Shown here one piece after another: positions 2,831-64,000 of a stretch of 64,000 bases of DNA (its first letter is position 1; the number at the start of each line of letters is the position of its first letter). Below the pieces are notes generated by a model that worked only from the letters and a program-made list of their open reading frames with translations, made no database searches and had not been told where the DNA came from. Both the position numbers and the translations under genes were made by a program. Where the stretch lies: contig CM000430.1 in assembly GCA_000165345.1 (NCBI GenBank), forward strand, positions 320,001 through 384,000, written 5' to 3'.

Positions 2831-5248
2831 ATGAAACAATCAATCGATAATGAATATGGAATAGATGAATTTAATAGATCACTAGATATTAGATTGAGAG
2901 GAACTATAAAGAAGTATTTTGAGGACTTCCATGTGCGTGAAATACAAAAAAATGGTGATGTTTGCTGTATTTCTTCATTAAGAAATAAACATGAGATAAT
3001 TAAGGAAATTCAAGAAAGAAAAAAGATACTTTCTGGAGATAATATGTTAATCAGCAGTAATGTAACTATAATACCTGAATTAATCAACAATCTAGAGAGC
3101 CTAGGAATATCTCAGTATTGTATTAACAATCTATTAACATTTATTAGTATTTTAGGTGAGATAAAAAAACTCACAAATAACAGCTCATTAGGCAATAGAA
3201 TGTTCAAATTGGATAATAGGGGAAACTTAAAAAGTATTTTTGAATTAAATATCAAGTTATATGGTACCGGCACTAACAATATTAGACCTGAGAATAATTT
3301 ATTACTTAATAATATACATGAGTTTAAAGACAACAAAGATTCAGTAAATGCCCAAAAAGAAAAGAGAAAAAAATTTCATACGCTAATAAAGAAATTTGTA
3401 CCGTTTATTACATCTCGAACTGTTGAAAACTTGAAAAACAACAACATTTTGTATCAAGATAAATCATTTCACTATAAAGATATTTCTATTTCGAATGAAA
3501 TATTTAGTGAAATTTCAAAGTTCTTTAAAGTTGATGAAATAGAATCTGAATGCCTTAAAAGTTTTAACCGGCAAATATTATGTAATGATTGTGATGAGAA
3601 ACAATTTGATATAATTGTTTTGAGGCCATCAAATGACTATATTTACTCATTGCGGAATGTTAGACAAAACACATCTGCAAGTATAGATGAATGCAAAGGT
3701 AATTCAGAAGCAAATGAAATAACACCGGATACTGAACCAGCTTGCAAAAAAAAAAGAATAGAATGTGCTGAATCAAACCTAATTACAGAAAAAAAAGTGG
3801 ATTTATTATTGGGAAGCAACGAAAGGTGGGATCCAAACATTCCAGATTATATTCATTTCACTATTTACAAAGAAAATAGAGACACAGCAGATGCAATCAA
3901 TATGATCTCAAAGTGTTTAAAGAGGAACCATAAATCCTTTGGAATAGCAGGCTTAAAGGATAGGAGAGGCATTACAGTGCAAAGAGCTTCTGCTTACAGA
4001 GTTTTGGAAGATCAATTAATTTATTCTACAGCTTCCAAAAATTGGGATCGCAATATTAGGATTTCAGATTTTAAATATGGAAATGAGCAAATAAATATTG
4101 GTGACCTCAATGGTAACCTCTTTCATGTAATAATTAGAGATTTAGAAATTTTAGATACAAATATACAAAAAGAATCTGGAAATGAAAAGTTAACATTGAA
4201 GATGGTTGACAAATTAATTGGCGATGTTAAATCTTCAGGTTTTATTAATTACTTTGGATTACAAAGATTTGGAACCAGTGAAATTCCTACATATAAGATT
4301 GGGATTTCATTATTAAAGAAGGAATGGAAAAAAGCTTTCTATTTAATTCTTGGATTTGACGAAGAAAAAATGATTAGCTATTCGACAGAAAAAAGAAAAT
4401 TCTATGACCAAATAATAAACGAAGATTTTGAAGAATATCAAAAAAGTCTATCAAATCATTCATATCTAGAGAAATTATTATTAAATGGATTTATTAAAGA
4501 AAAAAAGAAAATTAAAAGCAGCACTAAATGCAAAGCAAAGGAAGATATATATAGAGAAAGTATTAATTTACTACCAAAAAACTCTTATTCCCTTTATATA
4601 CATTCACTACAGTCGCTTTTTTTCAATATAGTTGCAAGCGAGAGAATAAAAAAATTTGGAAGAAATCCAGTAATTGGCGATCTAGTAATAGTTCCAAATT
4701 TAAATAAATATTCTAACAAAAATGAAGATTCAGCATTTAGCGAGAAAAATGTAATCGTATTAGAGAGCCAACTAGAATTGGCAAAGTTCACAATCCAAGA
4801 TGTGGTACTTACTTTACCCGGAGATAATGTTGCTTACCCACCAATCATGAGGGAAAAATATGAAGAACTAATGATGGAATTTATGGGAACAAGTATTCAA
4901 GAGAACTGCATGGGAATAAATGGTACCTATAGGAAGATCTTAGTAGTCCCAGACTATATCAATTATGTGGGGCTTAATATTTCTGAAAAACGAAATGATA
5001 CGAACAAATTTCCAGATTCCAAGGTTATTTTAAGCGACCTTGATATATTAACTATTCATCCCGAACTAACGCAAGAATTGGGAACAAAAGAACCCATATT
5101 ATCACCTGAAGTAATGAGTTACAAATGTGATGATAAAGATGAGAATTCGCAGGTGAACACATTAGTATTTTCATGCATGCTACCAAAATCATCTTATGTA
5201 ACAATGGCGTTGAGAGAGTTTTTGGGAAACTCTCCTTCAGAAAAGTAA
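2831..5248 (+). CDS. PUS7: tRNA pseudouridine synthase, TruD/Pus7 family
   Basis: Contains the TruD-family motif GLKDRRGITVQRAS (catalytic Asp in G-x-KD-x-R) and NYFGLQRFG. The long N-terminal extension and inserts are typical of eukaryotic Pus7. Confidence 0.85.
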   Translation: MKQSIDNEYGIDEFNRSLDIRLRGTIKKYFEDFHVREIQKNGDVCCISSLRNKHEIIKEIQERKKILSGDNMLISSNVTIIPELINNLESLGISQYCINNLLTFISILGEIKKLTNNSSLGNRMFKLDNRGNLKSIFELNIKLYGTGTNNIRPENNLLLNNIHEFKDNKDSVNAQKEKRKKFHTLIKKFVPFITSRTVENLKNNNILYQDKSFHYKDISISNEIFSEISKFFKVDEIESECLKSFNRQILCNDCDEKQFDIIVLRPSNDYIYSLRNVRQNTSASIDECKGNSEANEITPDTEPACKKKRIECAESNLITEKKVDLLLGSNERWDPNIPDYIHFTIYKENRDTADAINMISKCLKRNHKSFGIAGLKDRRGITVQRASAYRVLEDQLIYSTASKNWDRNIRISDFKYGNEQINIGDLNGNLFHVIIRDLEILDTNIQKESGNEKLTLKMVDKLIGDVKSSGFINYFGLQRFGTSEIPTYKIGISLLKKEWKKAFYLILGFDEEKMISYSTEKRKFYDQIINEDFEEYQKSLSNHSYLEKLLLNGFIKEKKKIKSSTKCKAKEDIYRESINLLPKNSYSLYIHSLQSLFFNIVASERIKKFGRNPVIGDLVIVPNLNKYSNKNEDSAFSEKNVIVLESQLELAKFTIQDVVLTLPGDNVAYPPIMREKYEELMMEFMGTSIQENCMGINGTYRKILVVPDYINYVGLNISEKRNDTNKFPDSKVILSDLDILTIHPELTQELGTKEPILSPEVMSYKCDDKDENSQVNTLVFSCMLPKSSYVTMALREFLGNSPSEK

Positions 5249-5283
5249 TTATAATGTCTAATAATATTAATTAAACTTGATAA

Positions 5284-7062
5284 CTATAAATCTATTTTTC
5301 TAAAAGTTGTTAATACAACAATTGCTCCTGCAGCACATAACAAAATTAGTCCCCATGTAATAAACCAAAATAATGCTGGTCCAACTTCTTCAAGTCCATT
5401 TCTAAGGTTCATTCCGAAACAGTCAGCAAAAAAGCCGCAAAAGCCAACAATTGTTGCGATAATTGACAATCCTAAGTCAGCCTTCATAATTGAATTTCTT
5501 AATGAAGAAAGTTCTAGTGTTAATACTTCTAGAGCATCTTCTAAAGATTCCCCTATTGACTCTATTTGTTGCAACATCATTTCTACTTCTTGTGCATAAC
5601 ACTCAAGGACATTTTCTACTTCTTCATGATAAGGAGTGTTTTTTGGGTATTCCCACGCTTCCGGTCTATTCCAATAAAATGAAATCTCAAGTCTTTGCAT
5701 ATCTTCTTCATTACCGAGCATTTCGGTAATTGCCTTGAAAAGTCCTTGAGCAAGCTCTTCTATAGCGTTTAATCTCCTTCTAAGCTCTGAAACTGCGTCT
5801 AACAATCTCCTTGTTTCTCGATTCCTTCCTGGAAAGCTATCAAGTATAAACAATACAGAATCTCTTATTGGCCTGACTTGTCGATTAATAATATTGCATG
5901 ATTCTACTAGAATAGTTTCTAATACCAAATATTCAAATGGAGTTGAACTCTCAATGCCAGAAATATGTTCTAGCTTCCTTAATAATGGAAATCCTTCCTC
6001 AATCCCAGGAGGAATAAACTGACAGTTTTTTGAATATATCTGTTTATCAGATAAACCTTCAATTGGAGTATATTCAATTCCAGTTTTTGGAAAACTGCTA
6101 ACCTTACTTGAATCGAACTGCACTGTCATAGAGTTATCAAAATTTACTTCATTTATAACATCATTTTTACACTGATAATTGCTTGGGGAATTTGGAATAT
6201 CAATTGAAGATAAATAGGGAGCTGGAACTTCGAGTTGTACATCATTAAGCGAGAATGCATTCTTATTAACACAACTATTTTGTTCCTTGAAATCTTCTTT
6301 TTTTTCAGATTTATTATTATTACCACTAGAATAGTTATAGTTGATTCCACTACTTGGATAGTCAAGTGGAGATCTTGAATATCCTGATGCAATTAGCAAA
6401 ACTTTTTGATGAAGAATAATTGCTCTAAAATGCGGTACATTCACTAAAATACAGTTTCTTCTTACTTCAATTGAAGGCCTTTGGCTACTACCCATACTCA
6501 CAACTTGTCTCAAATCACGAAGTTTTAGAGCACCAGGTACAGTATCCTGCAACAAGCATTCTTTGTTGTATGAATGTACCAACCGTAGTAACTCGCCCGT
6601 TTGCAAAAGCAGACATCTTTTATATCCTCTACCAATTTCAAAAGTAATATATTTTCTAGTCTTAGCTTGAATTGCATCCAGAAATTCTCTGCTTCCACCT
6701 AGTTTTTGATCGTTATTATCCATTATTTTATGTCTTTTATTAATATTCATTATTTCTGTGTTTCTTGTCATATTATTTGAGAATAGAAGTGGATTCCCCT
6801 CATCCATTTCGTCATTTACTTTTCGAATGCTGGAAGTTCTTTCGTTTCCATAAAACTGATCAACTACTCTATCCAAAAAGTCAACATTTTCTAACATTTC
6901 TTTTGAAGAGTCCTCGTTTTTTTGCGTTTCTGAATCATAAATTCTATCATCAAATATTTCCATGCTCTCTTCAACAACTATTGAATCCAAATCCTTGCTT
7001 ACAAGGTATGAGGGAGGAGGTTGTTGAATCTCCCTGAAACTTTCGTTGACATTATTTGACAT
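5284..7062 (-). CDS. CorA/Mrs2/Alr1-family Mg2+ transporter
   Basis: C-terminal FGMN signature (FADCFGMNLRNG) is followed by two TM helices (FWFITWGLILLCAAGAIVVL). The large N-terminal soluble region is as in Mrs2/Alr proteins. ATG verified at 7062. Confidence 0.8.
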   Translation of the reverse strand: MSNNVNESFREIQQPPPSYLVSKDLDSIVVEESMEIFDDRIYDSETQKNEDSSKEMLENVDFLDRVVDQFYGNERTSSIRKVNDEMDEGNPLLFSNNMTRNTEIMNINKRHKIMDNNDQKLGGSREFLDAIQAKTRKYITFEIGRGYKRCLLLQTGELLRLVHSYNKECLLQDTVPGALKLRDLRQVVSMGSSQRPSIEVRRNCILVNVPHFRAIILHQKVLLIASGYSRSPLDYPSSGINYNYSSGNNNKSEKKEDFKEQNSCVNKNAFSLNDVQLEVPAPYLSSIDIPNSPSNYQCKNDVINEVNFDNSMTVQFDSSKVSSFPKTGIEYTPIEGLSDKQIYSKNCQFIPPGIEEGFPLLRKLEHISGIESSTPFEYLVLETILVESCNIINRQVRPIRDSVLFILDSFPGRNRETRRLLDAVSELRRRLNAIEELAQGLFKAITEMLGNEEDMQRLEISFYWNRPEAWEYPKNTPYHEEVENVLECYAQEVEMMLQQIESIGESLEDALEVLTLELSSLRNSIMKADLGLSIIATIVGFCGFFADCFGMNLRNGLEEVGPALFWFITWGLILLCAAGAIVVLTTFRKIDL

Positions 7063-7128: not shown

Positions 7129-8340
7129 TTAAAGATACGCCCAATAAATGGACGATTTATCGAATACATTAGAAATAAATTTGATGATCTCTGACTTAGT
7201 ATTAAACCCTAATAAAATTTGTATATGGTCTAGTTTGCTATTCCCATTACAAAGTTGCAGTAATTCCTTTTCAATTCCTGAAAGTTCTTTAGTATCAGCA
7301 AAAATAATCGGAATTTCATGAAGTCTGGTGATTTTTTTGGAAACAACGCCTGCTGCAATGAACTTATAAATACTTTTAATTTTATGTTTTCTAAGCTCTT
7401 TGTGGTATTTTTTTGTGAATGACAACACGTTCCCTTCATTTATACATTCGTTGCACAACTTTCTGTATAAGCCATGTTTGTCCTCGCCACCAATAAATCT
7501 ATATTTGTTTTCTGAAGAAATCATATCAATCATACTTATGAGACCATATAAAACTAAATGTTCCAGACATACAATTACATCTTCAATAGGCAATGAACAA
7601 TACCTTGATATTTCAAAACTAGTATTAACTCCATTTATGTATGGTAGAATTTTAATAAGTGAAAAATCTAAACCTATATGTTTAATATCTGAAATCAATG
7701 TATTTTCGGAAGGGAAAGGAATATCTTCCGGATATATTATTATATTGGATGGAGGTCGTCTAATTCTAAAATTTAATATGCTAGCATCGCCAAACTCAAC
7801 AAACACTTGATGTCTCTTATTAAGTTGTGACCTTACATTCTCAATAACCTCCAGAATGTTCTTCGGAAAGGATGAAATCTCATTATTGTTCTTGGTTACC
7901 TTTTTTAACAAATTGGGAAGGTTCTCAGTATATGTACAATAGTAATAAAGTATTCCACAATCTTCTTCCAAAAGTTTGAATGCCGAACCAAGAGTTCGAG
8001 CAATATGCCTTGAATAGATCTCTTGATAAAAATTATAGGGCTTTTTTTCTACGATAATGCATACTGTGAACTGAAAGCTATTCCTTAAGTACTGACTACC
8101 TTCAATAAATATAGGGACTCCTATTGCTTTCCATCTATTTCCTATTACAAATGAAATCGTTTTCCCAGCAAAGTGAATATCCGGTAGTAGGTACTTTGTT
8201 ATAATTGAATATAGCTGAGATTTCTCAGATCCAAAAATATCTGAAGGGCTACTACAAAGCACAATCGGGCCAAGCTCTTCGTCAAATTTACAGAAAATAA
8301 TAGCCTCTATTTTTGGCCATAATGAAAAATGTGTATTCAT
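7129..8340 (-). CDS. NPRL2: Nitrogen permease regulator 2-like protein (NPRL2, GATOR1 subunit)
   Basis: N-terminus [23 protein letters not shown] matches NPRL2 [49 protein letters not shown] matches [41 protein letters not shown] matches ILPYIDGFRHIQKIS. Confidence 0.7.
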   Translation of the reverse strand: [403 protein letters not shown]

Positions 8341-8627
8341 AACTACTCTGTGTCATTCCGATTGAATAGAGTTATTTATGTTTTATTGCTGTAATACAAA
8401 TAAACTTTAATAGCACAAACTTTTCAGATAAAACCTAAGGCAGATTGAATTTCAAAGGTTGGAATAGAACCAAGCTATTTAACAATGCAAGAGAATAGAA
8501 AATCGTGTTAATAATTACTTTAAGATTGTCAATAATTTAATTTATTCCGCTATATTAAAATTTTGAAATTATAGCGGCAAATGTCAATTTCTGTTGTTTT
8601 AAGAGAATAATCTATCCAATAATAAGA

Positions 8628-9083
8628 ATGGTCTCGTTTGTTTGTGGAAATTGCCAAGATGTACTAAAAAAGAATAAAGTAGATTCTCATTGCGTTGGGA
8701 AATGCCGTGATGCCTGGGAATTCACATGTATTGATTGCAATTTTACTTTCGAGGGCTTCGACTATAAAAGTCATAATAGTTGTATAACAGAAAAAGAAAA
8801 ATACTGTGGTAAATTGGCAAATATTAAGAAACCTGTTCATTATCCAGGAAATAGTTTTGTAGATCGAAAGAAGGAGTTTCAGCTTATTATTGAGAAAATA
8901 CTAAAAAAAAATGGATCTATGAACTGGAAAAAACTAGTCAAAGAATCAATTAAAGAATATATGAATAGCGGAATTAATGATAATATTGAAGATAAAATTC
9001 TTAAATGGGAGTGCCTTGCTGCAATTCCTATTTCCTATACAACGAGTGAATCAAATATGGTTTCATTCAAACAGTCATTTTAG
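8628..9083 (+). CDS. LYAR: LYAR-type C2HC zinc-finger nucleolar protein
   Basis: MVSFVCGNCQDVLKKNKVDSH...CIDCNFTFEGFDYKSHNSCITEKEKYCG is collinear with human LYAR MVFFTCNACGESVKKIQVEKH...CIDCGKDFWGDDYKNHVKCISEDQKYGG. At 151 aa it is shorter than metazoan LYAR. Confidence 0.8.
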   Translation: MVSFVCGNCQDVLKKNKVDSHCVGKCRDAWEFTCIDCNFTFEGFDYKSHNSCITEKEKYCGKLANIKKPVHYPGNSFVDRKKEFQLIIEKILKKNGSMNWKKLVKESIKEYMNSGINDNIEDKILKWECLAAIPISYTTSESNMVSFKQSF

Positions 9084-42903: not shown

Positions 42904-42988
42904 GCGTAGATGCCCGAGTCGGTCTAAGGGGCCAGACTTAAGATCTGGTGTACACATGTACTCCAGGGTTCGAATCCCTGTCTACGCA
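42904..42988 (+). tRNA. tRNA-Leu (anticodon UAA), with a long variable arm
   Basis: Acceptor stem GCGTAGA/TCTACGC plus discriminator A. D-arm CCCGAGTCGGTCTAAGGGG. Anticodon stem-loop CCAGA-CTTAAGA-TCTGG. Variable arm TGTACACATGTACT. T-arm CAGGG-TTCGAAT-CCCTG. No CCA encoded. No intron. Confidence 0.85.
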
Positions 42989-52900: not shown

Positions 52901-53946
<1,046 letters not shown>

Positions 53947-54241
53947 TTATTACTTCAATATGTTAAATTTAAAGATAAATTACAAAAAAGAAAAAAAATG
54001 TTGAGAAGTGGTTATTTTAAAATTGACTTTTCTCCCCATCAAAATTTTTAGACAATACCGGTAATTTGACTTAAATTAATTGTTTAATACGAAAAAACAA
54101 TTTAGGTTAACAATTAAATGATATACGTAGATATAGTATTTAACTCATTCTTTTCTATTATAGTGAATAAACTAAACTTTAATATTTTGGGCTATTATTT
54201 TACTGATTGTTTGCCCTGAAATGGCAAAATTTGATACTAAG

Positions 54242-55229
54242 CTAGTCTGATTTTGAGAGTATTCTATTCCTTAAAGTTTCTATAACTTTTTCATTTGCTG
54301 CAACAAAATATGGATTAATTAGAACTTCTTTATTGTAGGTAAGTGGTTCCCCTAGTTTGAACTGGGTTTCTGATCCAGAAAAAAATGTTTCAAGCTTGTA
54401 AATATCACCGCAAGTTTGCCGTATAATAATATGGCTCGCACAAGTGTCCCATTCCATACAGTCATGAAACCTTGGATAGATATCAGCACGACTTTCAATA
54501 AGTTCAATAAATTTAATCGATGATCCGAATGGAATTTTAATATTGTTTTGGAAGAATTTCTCTGAGAATAAGTCTAAAATGGGGCATTTATAATTATGAG
54601 ATTTTAGTATTCTAATCACTCCATTATTGGGAAATGGTTTATTTGATTTGGGGATAAATTCAAGTGAGGTTTTGCCACAAATTACGTTAGAAGAATTTAA
54701 TGTAGCAATTTTATAAGCTCCTCCTAAATTATTAAACGAAAAAAATGATATTCCAGTATTTGGAATCGATACAACTCCAAGGGTTGGTTTGCCATTTTCA
54801 CAAAGTCCAATATTCACAGTGAATTCACCGTTTCGCCTCAAAAATTCTTTTGTACCATCAAGAGGATCAATGAGCCAACAAATCCTGAAAAAAATTAAAT
54901 TTTTTAGTTTAGTTTACAATAACTTACTTATACTTTTGCCTATTTTCCCAAGTATCAGTTTCCGATTCTTCTGAAATTATTGGTATTTGCGGCCACTTTG
55001 AAGAGAGTTTAGCACAAATGATTTCATTCGCATTTAAATCTGCTGTTGTGACTGGAGAGTTATCTTTATCCTTGTAATTAATTCTTAGTTCCGCATCAAT
55101 ATTTTTGTAAATTTCCATAATAACTTTGCTAGCAAGAAACCCAATTTCGACAACCTCCCTAGCAGAAATGACCACTTTACTGTCTAAATTAGTTTCGTAA
55201 CACAATTTATTAAATTCATCTAAGCTCAT
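54242..55229 (-). CDS. 3'(2'),5'-bisphosphate nucleotidase / inositol monophosphatase family (HAL2/BPNT1-like). Two exons: complement(join(54242..54884,54928..55229)).
   Basis: Exon 1 ...INYKDKDNSPVTTADLNANEII... matches Hal2 ITKNDNSPVTTGDYAAQTII. Donor TATAA|GTAAGT, 43-nt intron, acceptor TTTCAG. Exon 2 starts (K)ICWLIDPLDGTKEFLRRNGEFTVNIGL (W-x-DPLDGTKEF metal-binding motif). C-terminal MEWDTCASHIII. The ORF track splits it into two ORFs, the second starting on a TTG. Confidence 0.8.
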
Positions 55230-56706: not shown

Positions 56707-58337
56707 ATGAACAATAATTCAAAAAGGTAGGTAAATAATTTGCTTAAATATAAAAGATACTTTAAAATAAACATAACAAATATTAATGTTTTTTTTTGGA
56801 TTTTTAACAGGGCTCTAAAGTTAAACCTTCTTGATAACATTGAAAATCTTAAACAAAGCGTGTTGCTGAATAAGGCATCAATAGAGACAAATTATTTGGA
56901 AAGATGCGAGAAAGCAACAAAACATTGCATTACTAAAAATAATCACAAAGATGAGAATGAGGATAACTTAAGGCTGTTGTAAGTTAGGAAGGAGCTTTTA
57001 AAATAAACTTTCATTCAATAATAGGAGAAAAAGAGTTTCAATTAAGGATTTTAAAATTCTAAGCCCAATTGGCGCGGGAGCATTTGGTATAATTAGACTT
57101 GCGGAATGCAGGAACACAGGCAGCATTTATGCGCTAAAGCAAATGAGAAAAAGTATTATCAGAACAAAAAATCAGCTTGAAAGGATATACAATGAGAGAG
57201 CACTCCTGGCTCAAAATGCATCCGACTTTGTTGTAAAGTTATTTTACACATTTCAAGATGATAAACACTTATACCAAGTAATGGAGTATTTGCCTGGAGG
57301 GGACTTGATGTCATATTTAATAAAATATGATAAATTTAGTGAAGAAGACACTAGATTCTACATGGCGCAATTGGTTCATGCCGTTGATTTAGTTCATCAG
57401 TTAGGGTTTGTACACAGAGATGTAAAACCAGATAACATTGTTCTTGATTCTAAGGGGCATCTCAAATTATTAGATTTTGGGCTTTGCAAGTTTTCTCCAC
57501 TAATTGAAGGAGACGAAAATAGAGAATACCAAACAGAAAATCATTTAAGATGTGTCAATTTAAACGCTAAATCACATAAAGATAGTAATAAAGCTTCTGA
57601 AATTTCCTTTAATGAGAACAACGAAAACAAAAGAATTAACAAAGAACTTTATCGAGGATCAAATTTACTAGAAGAAAAGAATTGCCAAAATGAAGATTTA
57701 AATACTTCTCTGAAGCATTTGGACAGAAAGACAATTCATTCTACTGTAGGAACCCCACAGTATATGGCACCAGAAATATTTCTCAGACAAGGGTATACAC
57801 ATCTTGTAGATTGGTGGAGCGTGGGAATACTGATGTATGAATGTCTTTATGGAGGAGTACCATTTAATGATGATACGCATAACCCAATTAAAGTCGCAAT
57901 AAAAGTAATGCAGTGGGAAAAGTTATTATTACTCCCACATCCATGTAGAAAAATTTCGCCCGAAGCACTAGATCTACTAAAAAATTTATTGTGCCATCCT
58001 TCAAAAAGGTTTGATGGTGAACAGATTAAAAAGCATCCTTTTTTCAATGGTAAGTTTATAAATTTCGGTTAGTTTATTGAATTTATAACTTATGATAGAA
58101 ATTGATTGGGATAAATTAAGACAATGCCCTGCTCCATTCAACAAACAGATTAATGAGAATATATATAAAAGCAATGTTACGGCAGCAGAACTAATTGATG
58201 AGTCTCCAAACAACACAAGATATGGTGTTCAGGGTTCTTCACTAGTTGATATAAATTTCTTGGATTATACTTATAGGAATAAAGATCGTAATAATGATCC
58301 TATATCAATAGGAGAGGCCATTAAAATGTGCGGATGA
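56707..58337 (+). CDS. NDR/LATS-family (AGC) Ser/Thr protein kinase. Four exons: join(56707..56726,56811..56978,57025..58049,58099..58337).
   Basis: Exon 1 is MNNNSK followed by GTAGGT. Exon 2 is ...LERCEKATKHCITK...EDNLRLL. Exon 3 is RKRVSIKDFKILSPIGAGAFGIIRLAECRNTGSIYALKQMRKS...HRDVKPDNIVLDSKGHLKLLDFGLC...TVGTPQYMAPE..., collinear with human NDR1 [47 protein letters not shown]...[25 protein letters not shown]...TVGTPDYIAPE. It has the NDR-type activation-segment insert. Exon 4 (E)IDWDKLRQCPAPF...FLDYTYRNKDR matches VDWEHIRERPAAI...FINYTYKRFEG. All junctions are phase-consistent and the RLL|RKR junction is supported by homology. Confidence 0.8.
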
Positions 58338-58391: not shown

Positions 58392-59939
58392 TTAATTATT
58401 TCGTTCTAAATCTAATATAGAATCAGTCTCAAGTATTTCATTTACGCTTGCACCGTTTTGAAGTGTTTCCGAATTGGTTAATGCAATAATTGCTAACAAA
58501 TCAGAATCTGAAGAGGAAAAATCTGAATCAAAATCACTATTTATACCCTTTTCAATATTATTTTTAAAGCTTTTTTTTCTTTTACTTTCTCCTTTTGTTG
58601 GCGAGATTTTGTCTTTATTTTGCAGCGGACTTTGGTTGTAAATGTGTGGTTTGTAATCACCGTTTACCCAATATTCGGAATTATGAATAGGTAGGGGAAC
58701 AGTATAAAAGGGGGAAATCAAATCAGAAAATTGACTCAATGCTTTAGAATGGATATCCCTTGCAGATTCAAGAGTTAAAGGAATTCTTTTTTGCAGCCTA
58801 TACTTTCCCTTTGATATTCCGGATTTCTTTTTGGTACATATTATCCTGAAGCACGAATAGAATCCTAAACTCATCATGCTATCCAATATAAGTGGATCTG
58901 TAAAGCCCTTTCCTCTTAATTTATCTAAAAGCTTTTCTTTTAAAATTTCTAGTTTAATATTTTTCTTTTCTGGAGGTTTGCTACTGTTTTCAGAGTTATT
59001 TCCAGATAAACTATTATTAAAATCAGAATGCGAACACTCATTGGTGTCAGAATCCGACCCTCCCTCTGTTCTATTATCATCTTTTGATAAGTCTTTCCTG
59101 GATTCATGAAAAGTTTCTGAAAAAATATTTTTTACTGAAGCTCCGTTGATGCCAATTTTAAAGGACACATATTTTTTTAACAGTATTTCTAATGCCTTTT
59201 CCGGGTTTATCTTCATTTCCTTTTGATTAACAGCGATTGTTTTCGTAATTCGAATTGCGGACGGTCTCCCGTTTGCTATCGAATAACCAAGTCTTTTTAA
59301 ATTGGTTGGCATTCTACTTCCAATTTTACTTGATCTTGTGGGATCTAAGGGGAACTCCACATTTTCGAAGCAAAATGGGAATGTTGCTTCTGGCTTAGTT
59401 TCTATCATTGCAATAATATCCCAATTCCTGTAAACACCTATGTTGAATAAACTCCATTCAATTTCCGCGAGTCCATTTGAACACTGAGAAATATCTATGC
59501 CTTTCGTCTTCTTCCATTGAACTGCAACAGTAAACAAGCCATGGCTTTTTTCTCCCTTATTTGTATTTAATACGTTACTTTCCTTTGAAAGCCTGCTCAA
59601 TGTACTATTATGTGGAATAATAAGCTGAGACTTTCCATGAAATAAAGTTAATTGAGTATCAAAGTCACTATTTACAAATTCGTTCGAAAAAGCATAGGAA
59701 CAAACTGTGGAAGGATCATTTTTAATGATTGAACTGTAGTCGCATTTTTTACATGAGATAGATGAGCTACAATCCGGTTCCTTTGGTGGCAGGAACGGAG
59801 TAAATACCTGTCCACCTTTACAGAGATTTCTGCAAATTCCAGTACTTACAATATCTTTGCCTTCTCTTAAAAAGGGAGGAAATCCATGAACAATCGTATT
59901 GCTAATGGATAAAAACAAAACAATTAGGATCAATCTCAT
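58392..59939 (-). CDS. Secreted hypothetical protein (signal peptide, Cys-containing N-terminal region, acidic Ser/Asp-rich C-terminus)
   Basis: ATG at 59939 (the ORF-track TTG at 59945 lies upstream). MRLILIVLFLSISNTIVHG is a signal peptide. Cys pattern CRNLCKGG...CSSSISCKKCDY. C-terminal DFDSDFSSSDSD. No homologue recognised. Confidence 0.5.
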   Translation of the reverse strand: MRLILIVLFLSISNTIVHGFPPFLREGKDIVSTGICRNLCKGGQVFTPFLPPKEPDCSSSISCKKCDYSSIIKNDPSTVCSYAFSNEFVNSDFDTQLTLFHGKSQLIIPHNSTLSRLSKESNVLNTNKGEKSHGLFTVAVQWKKTKGIDISQCSNGLAEIEWSLFNIGVYRNWDIIAMIETKPEATFPFCFENVEFPLDPTRSSKIGSRMPTNLKRLGYSIANGRPSAIRITKTIAVNQKEMKINPEKALEILLKKYVSFKIGINGASVKNIFSETFHESRKDLSKDDNRTEGGSDSDTNECSHSDFNNSLSGNNSENSSKPPEKKNIKLEILKEKLLDKLRGKGFTDPLILDSMMSLGFYSCFRIICTKKKSGISKGKYRLQKRIPLTLESARDIHSKALSQFSDLISPFYTVPLPIHNSEYWVNGDYKPHIYNQSPLQNKDKISPTKGESKRKKSFKNNIEKGINSDFDSDFSSSDSDLLAIIALTNSETLQNGASVNEILETDSILDLERNN

Positions 59940-60098
59940 TCTCAATTTTGTGCATAAATTTCATGATTTAAAGTATGTTGATTATATTCGAAGTCCTGTA
60001 AAAGAAAGAAGATAGACTACCGACGCAATGAAAAATTGACAAGTGGCGCCACTGAAGCGCCAGTTATTTGAAGAGCCTAAAAACTAAATAATCGAAAA

Positions 60099-61079
60099 TC
60101 AGCCCATTCTTAAGATTCCCGCAGCCATCAATTTTTGAATTCCATTAGCAATTGTTGGATCCTGTATAACCTGTGTAAGAGTTGCAGGATTTTGTTTGAG
60201 CTGCTCTAGAACTAGTCTGAACTGAGGATCTGAAAGCAATGATTGTATTTCTGGATCCGCAAGCGCATGAGCTACCTGCTCCTCGTCGATTTGATCAGAT
60301 GAAGATACCTGCTGTATCTTTGCCATTGTGTTTTTTAGCCCTTCATTACACTCTTTATTATCAGGGTCGCATTTTAGCCCCTCTTGATATGCATGAAGCG
60401 CTTTATGATACTCTTTTAAAAAGTAATGAATATTTCCTTTCCTAGACCAAGCTTTAGTAAACTTTGGGTCTAAATCGAGGGCCTTCTGCACATCTATTAG
60501 GGCAGATGGGTACTCTAATAGTTGCATGTAGCACGCTGCTCTGTTGCTATATAATCTGGAGTCGCTTGGATTACGTTTAATGGCCTCGTCATATTCTTTC
60601 TTAGCGGCTGGGTAATTTTTTTGTTTAAATAAATCATTTCCTTCAATGCGATGTTTTTCTGCAAGTTCAGGATTAATGTATGCTTCCTTCTCTGCTTTCT
60701 CAATTAATCTCTCAAGTTCTTTAAGAGAAGTTCTTGTGTGCCTATTATTATCCTCTAACAGACTTTTCTCATACATTTCTTTTGCCTTCTGTAACTCGTT
60801 CATTTTAATGTAGCATGATGCCATCCTATTATATGCCTTAGCGACCTTTGTAAAGTCAGCTTTCACTTCGAATCGTTTTTCCAATGCCTGCATACAGACT
60901 TCTAGACATTTTTGGTATTCACCCATCTCTAGATAGACAGCACCTTTATTGGTTAAAAACGAAATATCGTTAGGATCTATTTCAATCGCCAGATCATATT
61001 GAACCAACGCTTCATCAAATTTCTTTTGCTTATAAAGTTCGTTACCTTTATTTTTGTAGAATTCAGCAGTTTTAGTCAT
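60099..61079 (-). CDS. STI1: Hsp70/Hsp90-organising protein (Hop/STI1), short form containing TPR2A, TPR2B and DP2 only
   Basis: Collinear with the human HOP TPR2A-TPR2B-DP2 region: [31 protein letters not shown] matches [58 protein letters not shown] matches [27 protein letters not shown]. Only 256 bp separate the ATG from the divergent downstream gene, so no room exists for TPR1-DP1. Confidence 0.85.
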   Translation of the reverse strand: [326 protein letters not shown]

Positions 61080-61335
61080 TTTTCAAAACAATTTCCTTCC
61101 GATTTGTTTCAACTTAGTAACGTGAAGACAGGGGTATTTGTATAAACCGCAAAAATCGAGAGGATTTAAGCATTCATAATTGTTGAGATATATTAATCGA
61201 TTTCGTGATTAGATATGGTTGAGTATTCGGTACATAAAATTTGCTTTACTTTATATCTAATTTCATTACAGACTTGCCCGGATTCAATGACTCTTGGATA
61301 TTAGACTATCTAAATTTGCAATTAATCATTCGATA

Positions 61336-64000
61336 ATGCATTTTGAAAGCTCAGACAATAAAATTAAAGAACAAATTACTTTTTTGCTTAATAATGAAAA
61401 CACAAATTTCGATTCTTCAAAAGCAGAATTAATAAAGAGCTTAATTTTTTCTTGGAAAATATTTTCAGAGCGTATGGATATAGAGAGTGCGGAACAATTT
61501 ACAAATAGATTTATTAGCCTAATTGGGGAACATGTTTTTTCACAGTATTATACTACAAATGGAAAAATTAAACGCTTCTACACTCATTACGAAAATCCAT
61601 TTATAGTTTACTTGCATGTTTTGTACTTAAAATTTAGTCTAGGGAACTTTTCTGGTCCAATTTCTTGCACAAGCCTATTAAATATCTTGTTTGGTGATTG
61701 CAATACAGAATTTTCAAGGATTTTATATAGAATTCACATTTTTAAGATTCAGAATATGCTTCTTTTGATATCCTCTTATTATTTAAATATTAATTGGGGA
61801 TATATTTACAAATTAATTCCAGGGATATCAAATTTTAACTGTTCTAATGATGCATACTACACTCGAAATATTAAGAATAGAGGCGATGACTCGGCCATAG
61901 GTTTTATCGATTCTAATTTGCCTAGATATAACATTCACTTAAGCTCGTTTTTGGTTTTAAGAGATTGTATTTATATTGTGTTTTCATTAATTTATTATTC
62001 AAAAAGCAGAGATCTTGATGACTTTATAATCGATAATTATTGCGGACTACTAAAGGACATGACTTATCAAAAAACTCTATTATTGACTGGCCCTAAAATT
62101 TCAAACACAAATAATAGACTTACAGGTTCATTTAAATTAAAGGAAAGGTCTTGTATCACCTCAGCAATACCCCTGTTATATGTTTTAATACAATTTATTT
62201 CTAACTCAAATGAAACGGAAACAGTTGTAAATGAAATCATGTCTAGGATAACTAACGAACATATAATTGATTCTGGGCAGTATTTGAAGGATAACAAATT
62301 TTGTAGCGGAAATAATTCAAGAATTGATATTTCAAGTCCACAATTTGTAATTTCTCTGAAACCTTCTTACAAGTTCCCCGATTATAATAAATGTATTGAT
62401 ATTTTACTTAAAGGAGGAGAATTTTTGTTTGTGTATCCAGCACCAAATTTTTTAAATCTTTTAATAAAGAGAATAAGAGGCAATTATACTTTTGATGTAG
62501 GAATAGGTGATTTCAGCAAAAAAAATATGAATGAAAGCAGATTAAGTGCACTATTAGAAGAATTTTTTCCGAAAGTAATGCTTAAACTATCTAAAGATTT
62601 GACACATTTGATCATTGAGGAAATATCAAATGAAACTAAGACTAGAGCTAGAGGCTTATCTACAATTAGTGTTGAGACTTATAAAGAGAAAGGGATTAGA
62701 TCTATCTTTAAAAGAAGACCCAAGAAAAAAAAAATCCCTATTGAAAATATTGTCGCTACAAGCATTGGTTATTCATCAAGGCCAGAATCTATTCCTATGC
62801 CGAGCCCTGGAATGAATATACCTTGTTTTTGCTGTATTCAAAGTGAGTTAGATGGCGCTTCATTATTTTATAGAACACTGAACATCCATACAAATAAAAG
62901 ATGTTTTAAATTACTTTCTGTTAAGACCCAAGATTTATGTGTTAAGCAATGGCATGCTATTATTAGGCAATTCATGGATTTAAAATTTCATCAAGTTCAA
63001 GCAAGTAATCCAATTTCAAAAAACTTAATTAAGATAACTAAAAGTAAGAAATACAATAAAATAGCAAATTGCTTACTTAATTCATGCAAAATAATTGATA
63101 AATGGTATGAAGAGGTTCTTCCAAAATGGGGAACACATTGGAATTGTAATTCAATGCCTGTTTCTATTCATAATTTATCTCTTAGCAGAAATCAAAATAT
63201 TAATAAGAATAGAAACGAATCTGAATATACAAAGCTTTATTTTGGAAAATATTTAAAGAATATTTCTCAGACATTTCAGCCGGATAGCTTCAATTTCTCG
63301 TTTTTTGGATCTCACTGGCTAAATCAAAATAATAGCATGCACATATTTGTGAATAGACCCAGATTAACCGTATTAAAATCATTTCAAAATTTAAAAGGAT
63401 ATTCAATGGAAAATGTTTGTTCTAGTGAGAATGGGAATAGCGTATCAAATTGGATTAATTTTTTGCAGTATAAATTACATAGTTCATATCCTTTGTACAC
63501 ATTTCCAATCATTGATAGAGGAGTAAGATTTGGAGCTCCCAATTCACAACTTTTGAGCGATCTATGGTCCATTGGAATTCCAAATGATATAAGGAATAAA
63601 ATTTGGAAAATAGCTTTGGGAAATGATTTGAAGGTATCAAATGAACTTTTTAATATTTTAAATTTACAAAGCAAATTAAATATAGATAAGAATGATGATA
63701 GTTCAACAAATTCTGTTATTTTTCGCTATGCTCTAGAAATACAGTACATTTTTTATAATAAAAAAAGGAATTCCAACATAGGCAAAAAGTTGTCACCTTA
63801 CATTGAAAGGAAAGTTGAAGTATTAAATTCCTCGGCATCATTTTACTATCCGTACTTTTTTTCACAGAAGTGCGGATTTGCAAGGGAATTTGATTACTCA
63901 ACTTTTAAATATGAAGAAGCCGATATTTCACTCCCGCTGATAAACACAGATGAGTATTTTATTGATATAAATAATGTTTATATTTCGAAAAGAATGATAA
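61336..64000 (+). CDS. Large hypothetical protein, N-terminal 888 aa, partial (continues past the window end). Possible RabGAP-TBC-like region near the window end.
   Basis: I translated codon by codon from ATG 61336 to 64000 and found no stop. It is absent from the ORF track because no stop falls in the window. Near the end, LWSIGIPNDIRNKIWKIALGN resembles the start of a TBC RabGAP domain (GIP..R..vW). The downstream IxxDxxR and YxQ motifs would lie beyond the window. Confidence 0.5.
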   Translation, partial: MHFESSDNKIKEQITFLLNNENTNFDSSKAELIKSLIFSWKIFSERMDIESAEQFTNRFISLIGEHVFSQYYTTNGKIKRFYTHYENPFIVYLHVLYLKFSLGNFSGPISCTSLLNILFGDCNTEFSRILYRIHIFKIQNMLLLISSYYLNINWGYIYKLIPGISNFNCSNDAYYTRNIKNRGDDSAIGFIDSNLPRYNIHLSSFLVLRDCIYIVFSLIYYSKSRDLDDFIIDNYCGLLKDMTYQKTLLLTGPKISNTNNRLTGSFKLKERSCITSAIPLLYVLIQFISNSNETETVVNEIMSRITNEHIIDSGQYLKDNKFCSGNNSRIDISSPQFVISLKPSYKFPDYNKCIDILLKGGEFLFVYPAPNFLNLLIKRIRGNYTFDVGIGDFSKKNMNESRLSALLEEFFPKVMLKLSKDLTHLIIEEISNETKTRARGLSTISVETYKEKGIRSIFKRRPKKKKIPIENIVATSIGYSSRPESIPMPSPGMNIPCFCCIQSELDGASLFYRTLNIHTNKRCFKLLSVKTQDLCVKQWHAIIRQFMDLKFHQVQASNPISKNLIKITKSKKYNKIANCLLNSCKIIDKWYEEVLPKWGTHWNCNSMPVSIHNLSLSRNQNINKNRNESEYTKLYFGKYLKNISQTFQPDSFNFSFFGSHWLNQNNSMHIFVNRPRLTVLKSFQNLKGYSMENVCSSENGNSVSNWINFLQYKLHSSYPLYTFPIIDRGVRFGAPNSQLLSDLWSIGIPNDIRNKIWKIALGNDLKVSNELFNILNLQSKLNIDKNDDSSTNSVIFRYALEIQYIFYNKKRNSNIGKKLSPYIERKVEVLNSSASFYYPYFFSQKCGFAREFDYSTFKYEEADISLPLINTDEYFIDINNVYISKRMI

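Follow-up and report, generated by a model that had tools for sequence, protein, structure and literature searches.

The open reading frame (ORF) described here lies in a 64-kb stretch of DNA (contig CM000430.1; the window) that is assigned to Cryptosporidium parvum because the 326-residue protein it encodes is identical to C. parvum Iowa II EAZ51382.1, deposited as 'stress-induced protein sti1-like protein'. It is very likely that this ORF is a true and complete orthologue of Hop/STI1, naturally truncated at its N-terminus to the rigid TPR2A-TPR2B-DP2 core, and that the TPR1-DP1-linker module was deleted on the stem of the genus. Hop is the best-conserved co-chaperone of Hsp90 and links it to Hsp70; what its N-terminal TPR1-DP1 arm contributes is a matter of continuing debate. 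The architecture of the short protein, its conservation throughout the genus, the purifying selection that acts on it and the integrity of its peptide-binding clamps are direct observations.

The identity of the protein was established by comparison with solved structures and with the Hops of related parasites. The best sequence match among solved structures was human Hop (PDB 7KW7 chain E), to which query residues 8-324 align against Hop residues 228-541 of 543 without any rearrangement (E = 5.6e-102); over TPR2A-TPR2B-DP2 the identity to human Hop is 41%. A preliminary description of this DNA had described the protein as running from TPR2A, at its start, to DP2, at its end, and had suggested an alignment with the full-length Hops of related species. 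In that alignment, the last ~320 residues of 11 full-length apicomplexan Hops were found to be collinear with the query, from residues 3-8 to residues 324-326, at 52-62% identity. The start of the Cryptosporidium protein coincides with the point at which the charged linker of the full-length apicomplexan Hops ends, at about residue 221 of the human protein. Both stated boundaries hold, because the human and apicomplexan alignments and the Pfam domain calls place them there. Hop-type TPR domains were present in all of the 120 best database matches, and a precomputed STI1-HOP_DP domain was present in all except that from Porospora (P0056). The named proteins among these 120 carry the name Hop, STI1 or a generic one, and the apicomplexan matches cover 97-100% of the query.

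Architecture and conservation within the genus

Pfam reports TPR repeats and a single STI1-HOP_DP domain in the protein. The match to the latter (PF17830) runs over residues 265-319 in one stretch, spans profile positions 1-55 of 55 and scores 56.9 bits against a cut-off of 29.1 (E = 2e-15). The alignment of DP2 with the human C-terminus continues to residue 541 of 543. The canonical TPR1 domain is absent by alignment and by a search of the window, and missing too are DP1 and the charged linker between DP1 and TPR2A: Pfam finds just one DP stretch, and the whole region is missing in the alignment.

The residues predicted to bind the chaperone tails are retained in both TPR domains. The five-residue clamp of TPR2A (K9, N13, N44, K81 and R85) corresponds to human K229, N233, N264, K301 and R305, and all five are identical in the HMMER alignment. 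TPR2B aligns with its counterpart in C. elegans STI-1 (4GCO) without gaps (E = 5.8e-31), and its clamp positions are conserved as R144, N148, N179, K209 and R213; the arginine at the first of these also occurs in other apicomplexans and in Arabidopsis.

An AlphaFold2 model, for which the input was a 30-sequence alignment, has a mean pLDDT of 92.0 and contains seven helices in each TPR domain (in TPR2A from H5-17 to H113-134). DP2 is modelled as five short helices with a pLDDT of 74-85. The best fold match among solved structures was again 7KW7 chain E (327 residues, 324 aligned columns, TM 0.74), followed by TPR2A-TPR2B of yeast Sti1 (3UQ3; TM 0.85 on target length, root mean square deviation 3.1 Å, 253 columns). 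TPR2B of C. elegans STI-1 (4GCO) was matched with a TM of 0.94 on target length and a root mean square deviation of 1.1 Å. The ordered portion of human Hop in the Hsp90-Hsp70-Hop-glucocorticoid receptor client-loading complex thus has almost exactly the same extent as the complete protein of Cryptosporidium.

C. parvum is not alone in having the short form. Orthologues of 325-326 residues were found in C. hominis, C. meleagridis, C. canis, C. felis, C. ubiquitum, chipmunk genotype I, C. muris, C. ryanae and C. xiaoi; the Cryptosporidium orthologues are 80-91% identical, and at least 10 species or genotypes carry the short form. The same gene order was observed in C. muris, C. ryanae and C. felis, namely a divergent RabGAP-TBC gene, a spacer (203, 180 and 287 bp, respectively), the short Hop, a gene for a protein of 525-547 residues without Pfam matches, and a kinase gene. 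A local mis-join of the C. parvum sequence, which the preliminary description had named as a circumstance that could overturn it, is ruled out by this shared synteny in three other species together with the same protein length in at least 10.

The position of the start codon is likewise conserved in the alignment. An in-frame stop lies one to six codons 5' of the ATG in C. parvum, C. muris and C. felis (in C. parvum a TGA two codons away), and in C. ryanae the frame upstream of the ATG is open for 51 codons. In all four species, the 400 bases upstream of the ATG contain stops in all three frames. Between Cryptosporidium species, the nonsynonymous divergence (dN) of the gene is 0.08-0.17, and the synonymous divergence (dS) by the NG86 method is undefined, as synonymous sites are saturated. 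Low dN combined with saturated dS indicates that the short Hop is under strong purifying selection. A pseudogene, or a gene in decay, was ruled out on these values and on the intact reading frames. One database entry departs from the common length: the Hop gene of C. tyzzeri is represented by a protein of only 75 residues (TRY53163.1), probably because the gene model is fragmented in the assembly concerned.

The upstream region and the rest of the window

The coordinates of the gene, its domains and its neighbours are given in Table 1. The window is AT-rich (~30% G+C) and gene-dense.

Table 1. Positions of the short Hop gene, its domains and other features within the 64-kb window.
Feature	Position	Strand	Basis
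Short Hop/STI1, complete coding sequence	60099..61079	-	ORF listing; single exon, ATG start, 326 residues plus stop
TPR2A (residues 1-132), predicted Hsp90 MEEVD-binding site	60684..61079	-	aligns to human 1ELR and 3ESK, yeast 3UQ3, C. elegans 4GCN
TPR2B (residues 133-252), predicted Hsp70 EEVD-binding site	60324..60683	-	aligns to C. elegans STI-1 4GCO, human 2LNI
DP2 (residues 265-319), sole DP domain	60123..60287	-	Pfam PF17830 STI1-HOP_DP; human Hop DP2 alignment
Divergent intergenic spacer, 256 bp, non-coding, presumed shared promoter region	61080..61335		stops in the three Hop-strand frames
Divergent neighbour, 5' part of a large ORF running off the window	61336..64000	+	888 codons open to the window end
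Downstream neighbour, 517-residue ORF, synteny anchor, not part of Hop	58392..59945	-	ORF listing
Sis1/DNAJB-like Hsp40	52901..53950	-	DnaJ and DnaJ_C domains
Inositol-monophosphatase ORF	54242..54841	-	starts at profile position 102 of 271
Protein-kinase ORF	57143..58072	+	starts at profile position 38 of 263
tRNA-Leu (anticodon TAA)	42904..42988	+

The spacer between Hop and its divergent neighbour leaves little to be hidden. The preliminary description had argued that it is too small for a TPR1-DP1 module of about 230 residues, and this is borne out: 256 closed bases offer no room for such a module, despite the 5' micro-exons known in this genome. On the far side, the divergent neighbour has an in-frame stop at 61288, upstream of its first possible ATG. 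The part of this ORF that lies inside the window has no Pfam match; its syntenic genes in C. muris, C. ryanae and C. felis encode proteins of 1241-1433 residues with a RabGAP-TBC domain (PF00566), and its N-terminus is similar to that of the C. felis counterpart.

The whole window was also searched by tblastn with the TPR1-DP1-linker modules of 11 apicomplexan Hops. The only matches were paralogous ones within the Hop gene itself, of TPR1-DP1 to TPR2B-DP2 (E down to 1e-26) and of TPR1 to TPR2A; elsewhere in the 64 kb, none of the 11 queries gave a match below E = 0.25. A spliced upstream exon encoding a further TPR domain, the other circumstance that the preliminary description had regarded as damaging, was not found, and a hidden exon was rejected on the translation of the spacer in all frames in four species together with this search.

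Several other features of the window were recorded. The 517-residue ORF downstream of Hop matches no Pfam family and has a hydrophobic N-terminus and stretches rich in serine and asparagine. About 6.4 kb from Hop lies a gene for a Sis1/DNAJB-like Hsp40. A first exon of 9 nt, ATGGGTAAG ('MGK'), completes its J domain, and a GTAAGT...TAG intron of ~70 nt comes after this exon; this is a 5' micro-exon in an intron-poor genome. The inositol-monophosphatase and protein-kinase ORFs begin well inside their profiles and probably have further exons or upstream coding sequence beyond the simple ORF call. The tRNA-Leu is the sole tRNA found in the window.

Origin of the short form and other Hops without TPR1

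Full-length Hop is the rule among other apicomplexans. The proteins recovered have ~535-600 residues, bar a few shorter or partial gene models; the shorter entries among the matches listed were those of Eimeria maxima (371 residues, marked partial) and Cystoisospora (468 residues). The module that Cryptosporidium lacks comprises ~220-245 residues in these relatives. Of particular relevance are the gregarines, where all five named sequences (Gregarina niphandrodes, Gregarina sp., Protomagalhaensia, Porospora and Lankesteria) are full length. Mainly because of this distribution, the loss of TPR1-DP1 is probably to be placed on the stem of Cryptosporidium, later than the divergence from the sampled gregarines and earlier than that between gastric and intestinal species. 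In a distance-based neighbour-joining (NJ) tree with bootstraps, which has a weak backbone and does not fix exactly how many losses occurred, gregarines belong to the sister group of the Cryptosporidium clade in 64% of bootstraps. A 16-residue motif of the Cryptosporidium protein is also closer to the eugregarine NRAAA[YF][IM]QLLEYPSAL than to the NRAAALTKL of coccidia, haemosporidia and piroplasms.

The TPR1-less architecture was already known from C. elegans. When 1.84 billion cluster representatives were searched exhaustively with HMMER and the names then looked up, it was identified in several other lineages, and each additional protein contains a single Pfam DP domain. TPR1-less Hops of 334-335 residues are present in Perkinsus marinus, P. 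olseni and P. chesapeaki. A group of metagenomic proteins of 337-338 residues (P0133, P0089, P0099 and P0112; for example at 6001..7017 of the locus extracted from ENA ERZ19570058 scaffold_14, 295 kb) comes from a eukaryote with a very compact genome, ~49% G+C and intergenic gaps of ~40-170 bp. These proteins group with those of Perkinsus and share with them a six-residue insertion in TPR2A. The Perkinsus-type proteins begin within three residues of the Cryptosporidium start. The Perkinsus and 338-residue loci, which were the ones checked for incomplete gene models, have close upstream neighbours. The short Hop of P. marinus (335 residues, TPR2A-TPR2B-DP2; 5001..6575 of the locus extracted from GG673069.1; P0268, P0405) is named 'serine/threonine protein phosphatase PfPP5, putative' in GenBank/RefSeq, which is an annotation error carried over from TPR similarity.

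The chromerids have an intermediate architecture. The Hops of Chromera velia (441 residues, P0276) and Vitrella brassicaformis (450 residues, P0098) lack TPR1 and keep a DP1-like stretch and the charged linker, and Pfam finds DP2 only; the Chromera form shares its 90% cluster with an MMETSP transcript of 448 residues. Outside the alveolates, two TPR1-less Hops, of 325 and 333 residues, were found in the mite Dermatophagoides. The 325-residue protein (P0369) is the mites' own arthropod-type Hop. The 333-residue one (P0317) is encoded by an intronless gene, annotated as 'hsp70-Hsp90 organising protein-like' in two house-dust-mite species, and in the NJ tree it groups with the Hop of Gregarina niphandrodes and not with arthropod Hop. 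This gene could be a gregarine contaminant or the result of horizontal transfer; it occupies 8001..9002 of the locus extracted from D. farinae contig JAMLFS010000015.1, where no other gene was called within 8 kb on either side.

Judged by their sequences, the losses in Cryptosporidium and in the Perkinsus-type group are independent of each other. This is because the six-residue insertion of the Perkinsus-type forms is shared with a 602-residue full-length protein, with which they form a clade in 92% of NJ bootstraps, and is absent from Cryptosporidium Hop, and because a clade of Cryptosporidium and Perkinsus that excludes the full-length apicomplexan Hops appears in 0.5% of bootstraps. No obvious change common to the TPR2B domains of the short forms was seen in the alignment; no convergence analysis was made.

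Function and relation to known Hops

The function of the short Hop can be approached from what has been reported for its counterparts. In yeast Sti1, the high-affinity interaction with Hsp70 is made through TPR2B, fragments without TPR1 have roughly the Hsp70 binding of the wild type, and the TPR2A-TPR2B-DP2 fragment alone gives ~80% of wild-type glucocorticoid-receptor activation; TPR1-DP1 was proposed to recruit the Hsp70-client complex and later to help remove Hsp70 (PMC4403447). A review describes TPR2A-TPR2B-DP2 as the minimal functional module, and C. elegans Hop, which lacks TPR1, as fully functional (PMC8629791). By analogy with yeast, human and worm Hop, TPR2A of the Cryptosporidium protein would hold the C-terminal MEEVD tail of Hsp90, TPR2B would hold the EEVD tail of Hsp70, and DP2 would assist the hand-over of the client. 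The protein would thus act like the 'minimal functional module' of Sti1 and would be without the flexible arm that serves canonical Hop as the first recruiter of Hsp70-client and later as a helper in Hsp70 removal. The preliminary description took TPR1 for the main Hsp70-binding site of canonical Hop and expected the short form to rely on TPR2B. The former view is dated (PMC4403447), while the latter is reasonable from the yeast data. Since TPR2B is the high-affinity site and the yeast fragment retains most of its activity, the loss is less dramatic than had been implied.

The partner chaperones appear canonical. C. parvum Hsp70 is listed among the EEVD/GGMP-type Hsp70s and is described as ending in EEVD and carrying 11 GGMP repeats, the most among the Hsp70s compared, and such repeats contribute to the binding of PfHop in Plasmodium (PMC7926355). 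C. parvum Hsp90 is included in an alignment for which exceptions to MEEVD are mentioned in Leishmania and T. cruzi only (PMC3654555).

Alternative explanations concern either the gene or its mode of action. That the short Hop is an artefact of annotation or assembly, with further 5' exons or a mis-assembled locus, is scarcely credible: the micro-exon of the nearby DnaJ gene, ATGGGTAAG followed by its GTAAGT...TAG intron, lends the idea some substance, but no frame is open through the 256-bp spacer, a long divergent ORF adjoins it, TPR1-like sequence is lacking in the 64 kb, and the length is the same in independently made assemblies of at least 10 species, four of them with shared synteny. It is most improbable that the gene was split and that TPR1-DP1 is encoded elsewhere in the genome as a separate, cooperating protein. 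Nothing positive speaks for it, and at least 10 Cryptosporidium species are represented by named proteomes in the searched database. With a profile built from ten apicomplexan TPR1-DP1 modules, no Cryptosporidium protein appeared among the best 120 of 1965 matches (all 195-343 residues), and TPR1-DP1 of the closest full-length relative, used as a single query sequence, gave 14 matches, none from Cryptosporidium. These searches returned only proteins of up to ~343 residues (the query has 195) and not even the full-length source proteins of the queries, which suits a stand-alone module. It is very unlikely, too, that the short Hop is an ancient alveolate paralogue which Cryptosporidium has in common with Perkinsus and the 337-338-residue group and retained when the full-length copy was lost, so that no truncation took place in this genus. 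The existence of TPR1-less Hops in other alveolates (Perkinsus, the metagenomic group, Chromera and Vitrella) and the nearly identical start of the Perkinsus-type proteins are in keeping with such a history. However, the insertion ties the latter to a full-length protein, the clade that this history calls for is the one seen in 0.5% of bootstraps, and Cryptosporidium Hop shows greater identity with the full-length forms of apicomplexans (53-61%) than with those of the Perkinsus type (52%) or of chromerids (52%). Among the matches listed, moreover, no apicomplexan has both a full-length and a complete short form.

An alternative of another kind is that the short Hop binds Hsp70 and Hsp90 one at a time, in binary and competitive complexes, and serves as a brake on the Hsp90 ATPase or as a holding factor, the client being transferred through direct Hsp70-Hsp90 contact. 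This is unlikely, yet it is the main mechanistic rival, and the Cryptosporidium protein has the same architecture as C. elegans STI-1, for which competitive binding was reported and the sufficiency of TPR2A-TPR2B for a ternary complex 'remains to be determined' (PMC8629791). Both clamps are conserved, however, the corresponding yeast fragment is active and binds Hsp70 with high affinity through TPR2B (PMC4403447), and the Hop residues modelled in the human Hsp90/Hsp70/glucocorticoid receptor loading complex (7KW7 chain E) span the same region as the Cryptosporidium protein. Against the reading of a stem deletion that left a bridging core, the following points have to be set. Even for the worm precedent, it is not established that a Hop without TPR1 bridges the two chaperones, because binding there is reported as competitive and the ternary complex was left open (PMC8629791), and the mechanism proposed for Cryptosporidium is entirely a matter of homology. 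An exclusive clade of Cryptosporidium and eugregarines was obtained in just 9% of NJ bootstraps, with a poorly supported backbone. The failure to find a separate Cryptosporidium TPR1-DP1 protein among the best 120 of 1965 matches and the further 14 is suggestive, not exhaustive, and a divergent copy is possible.

Deletion of the TPR1-DP1 module from an otherwise intact Hop is nevertheless the explanation adopted here, and it may have a wider bearing. A tentative proposal is that loss of the arm has been recurrent and convergent (in Cryptosporidium, the Perkinsus lineage, the chromerids for TPR1 only, dust mites and C. elegans), and that client transfer in such organisms may differ mechanistically, using either the single Hsp70 site of TPR2B or competitive binary complexes; in Cryptosporidium this would perhaps be compensated by the 11-repeat GGMP tail that precedes EEVD in Hsp70. 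The proposal is doubtful as it stands; if it is true, Cryptosporidium is a natural system for studying the function of TPR1-DP1, with a Hop-chaperone interface that differs from that of the host. A whole parasite genus without the arm, together with further independent losses, provides natural evidence for TPR2A-TPR2B-DP2 as the indispensable core, and the short Hops assembled here are test cases beyond C. elegans. For Cryptosporidium, a simplified Hsp70-Hop-Hsp90 interface with an architecture unlike that of the host is relevant to work on inhibitors of the Hsp90 pathway. The result is modest and will not surprise chaperone specialists, and it opens no long-standing question alone, because the short form and its sufficiency are already documented.

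No paper describing the short Cryptosporidium Hop was found in full-text literature searches, which did not cover Johnson and Brown 2009 in Cell Stress Chaperones, the survey likeliest to mention it. The short architecture of C. elegans Hop and its functional sufficiency were already known, and the 326-residue gene model has long been public.

Compared with canonical Hop (human STIP1, yeast Sti1, PfHop and Toxoplasma Hop), the Cryptosporidium protein is orthologous, conserves both clamps and DP2 and superposes in fold on 7KW7 chain E and 3UQ3. It differs in lacking TPR1, DP1 and the charged flexible linker, and has one predicted Hsp70 site where canonical Hop has two, without a flexible arm for recruitment. 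The Hops of Perkinsus, the metagenomic group, chromerids and Dermatophagoides resemble it in having a single DP domain by Pfam and no TPR1; the Perkinsus-type proteins are set apart by their six-residue TPR2A insertion, which indicates a separate loss, and the chromerid ones by the retained DP1-like stretch and linker. The likeness to the short Hop of C. elegans, to which the preliminary description had drawn attention, is confirmed: like the worm protein, which lacks TPR1 (PMC8629791), the Cryptosporidium protein starts at TPR2A, has neither TPR1 nor DP1, falls within ~320-340 residues and contains a single DP domain, and the worm structures 4GCN and 4GCO align over whole domains. The two are nevertheless of independent origin, one animal and one apicomplexan, because the spider and insect Hops listed are full length and Cryptosporidium Hop is nearest to full-length apicomplexan Hops. 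A further parallel is the engineered TPR2A-TPR2B-DP2 fragment of Sti1, which binds Hsp70 with wild-type-like affinity (PMC4403447; PMC8629791). Cryptosporidium Hop is a natural equivalent of this laboratory construct, yet it is not a deletion mutant but a natural protein maintained by purifying selection across a whole genus.

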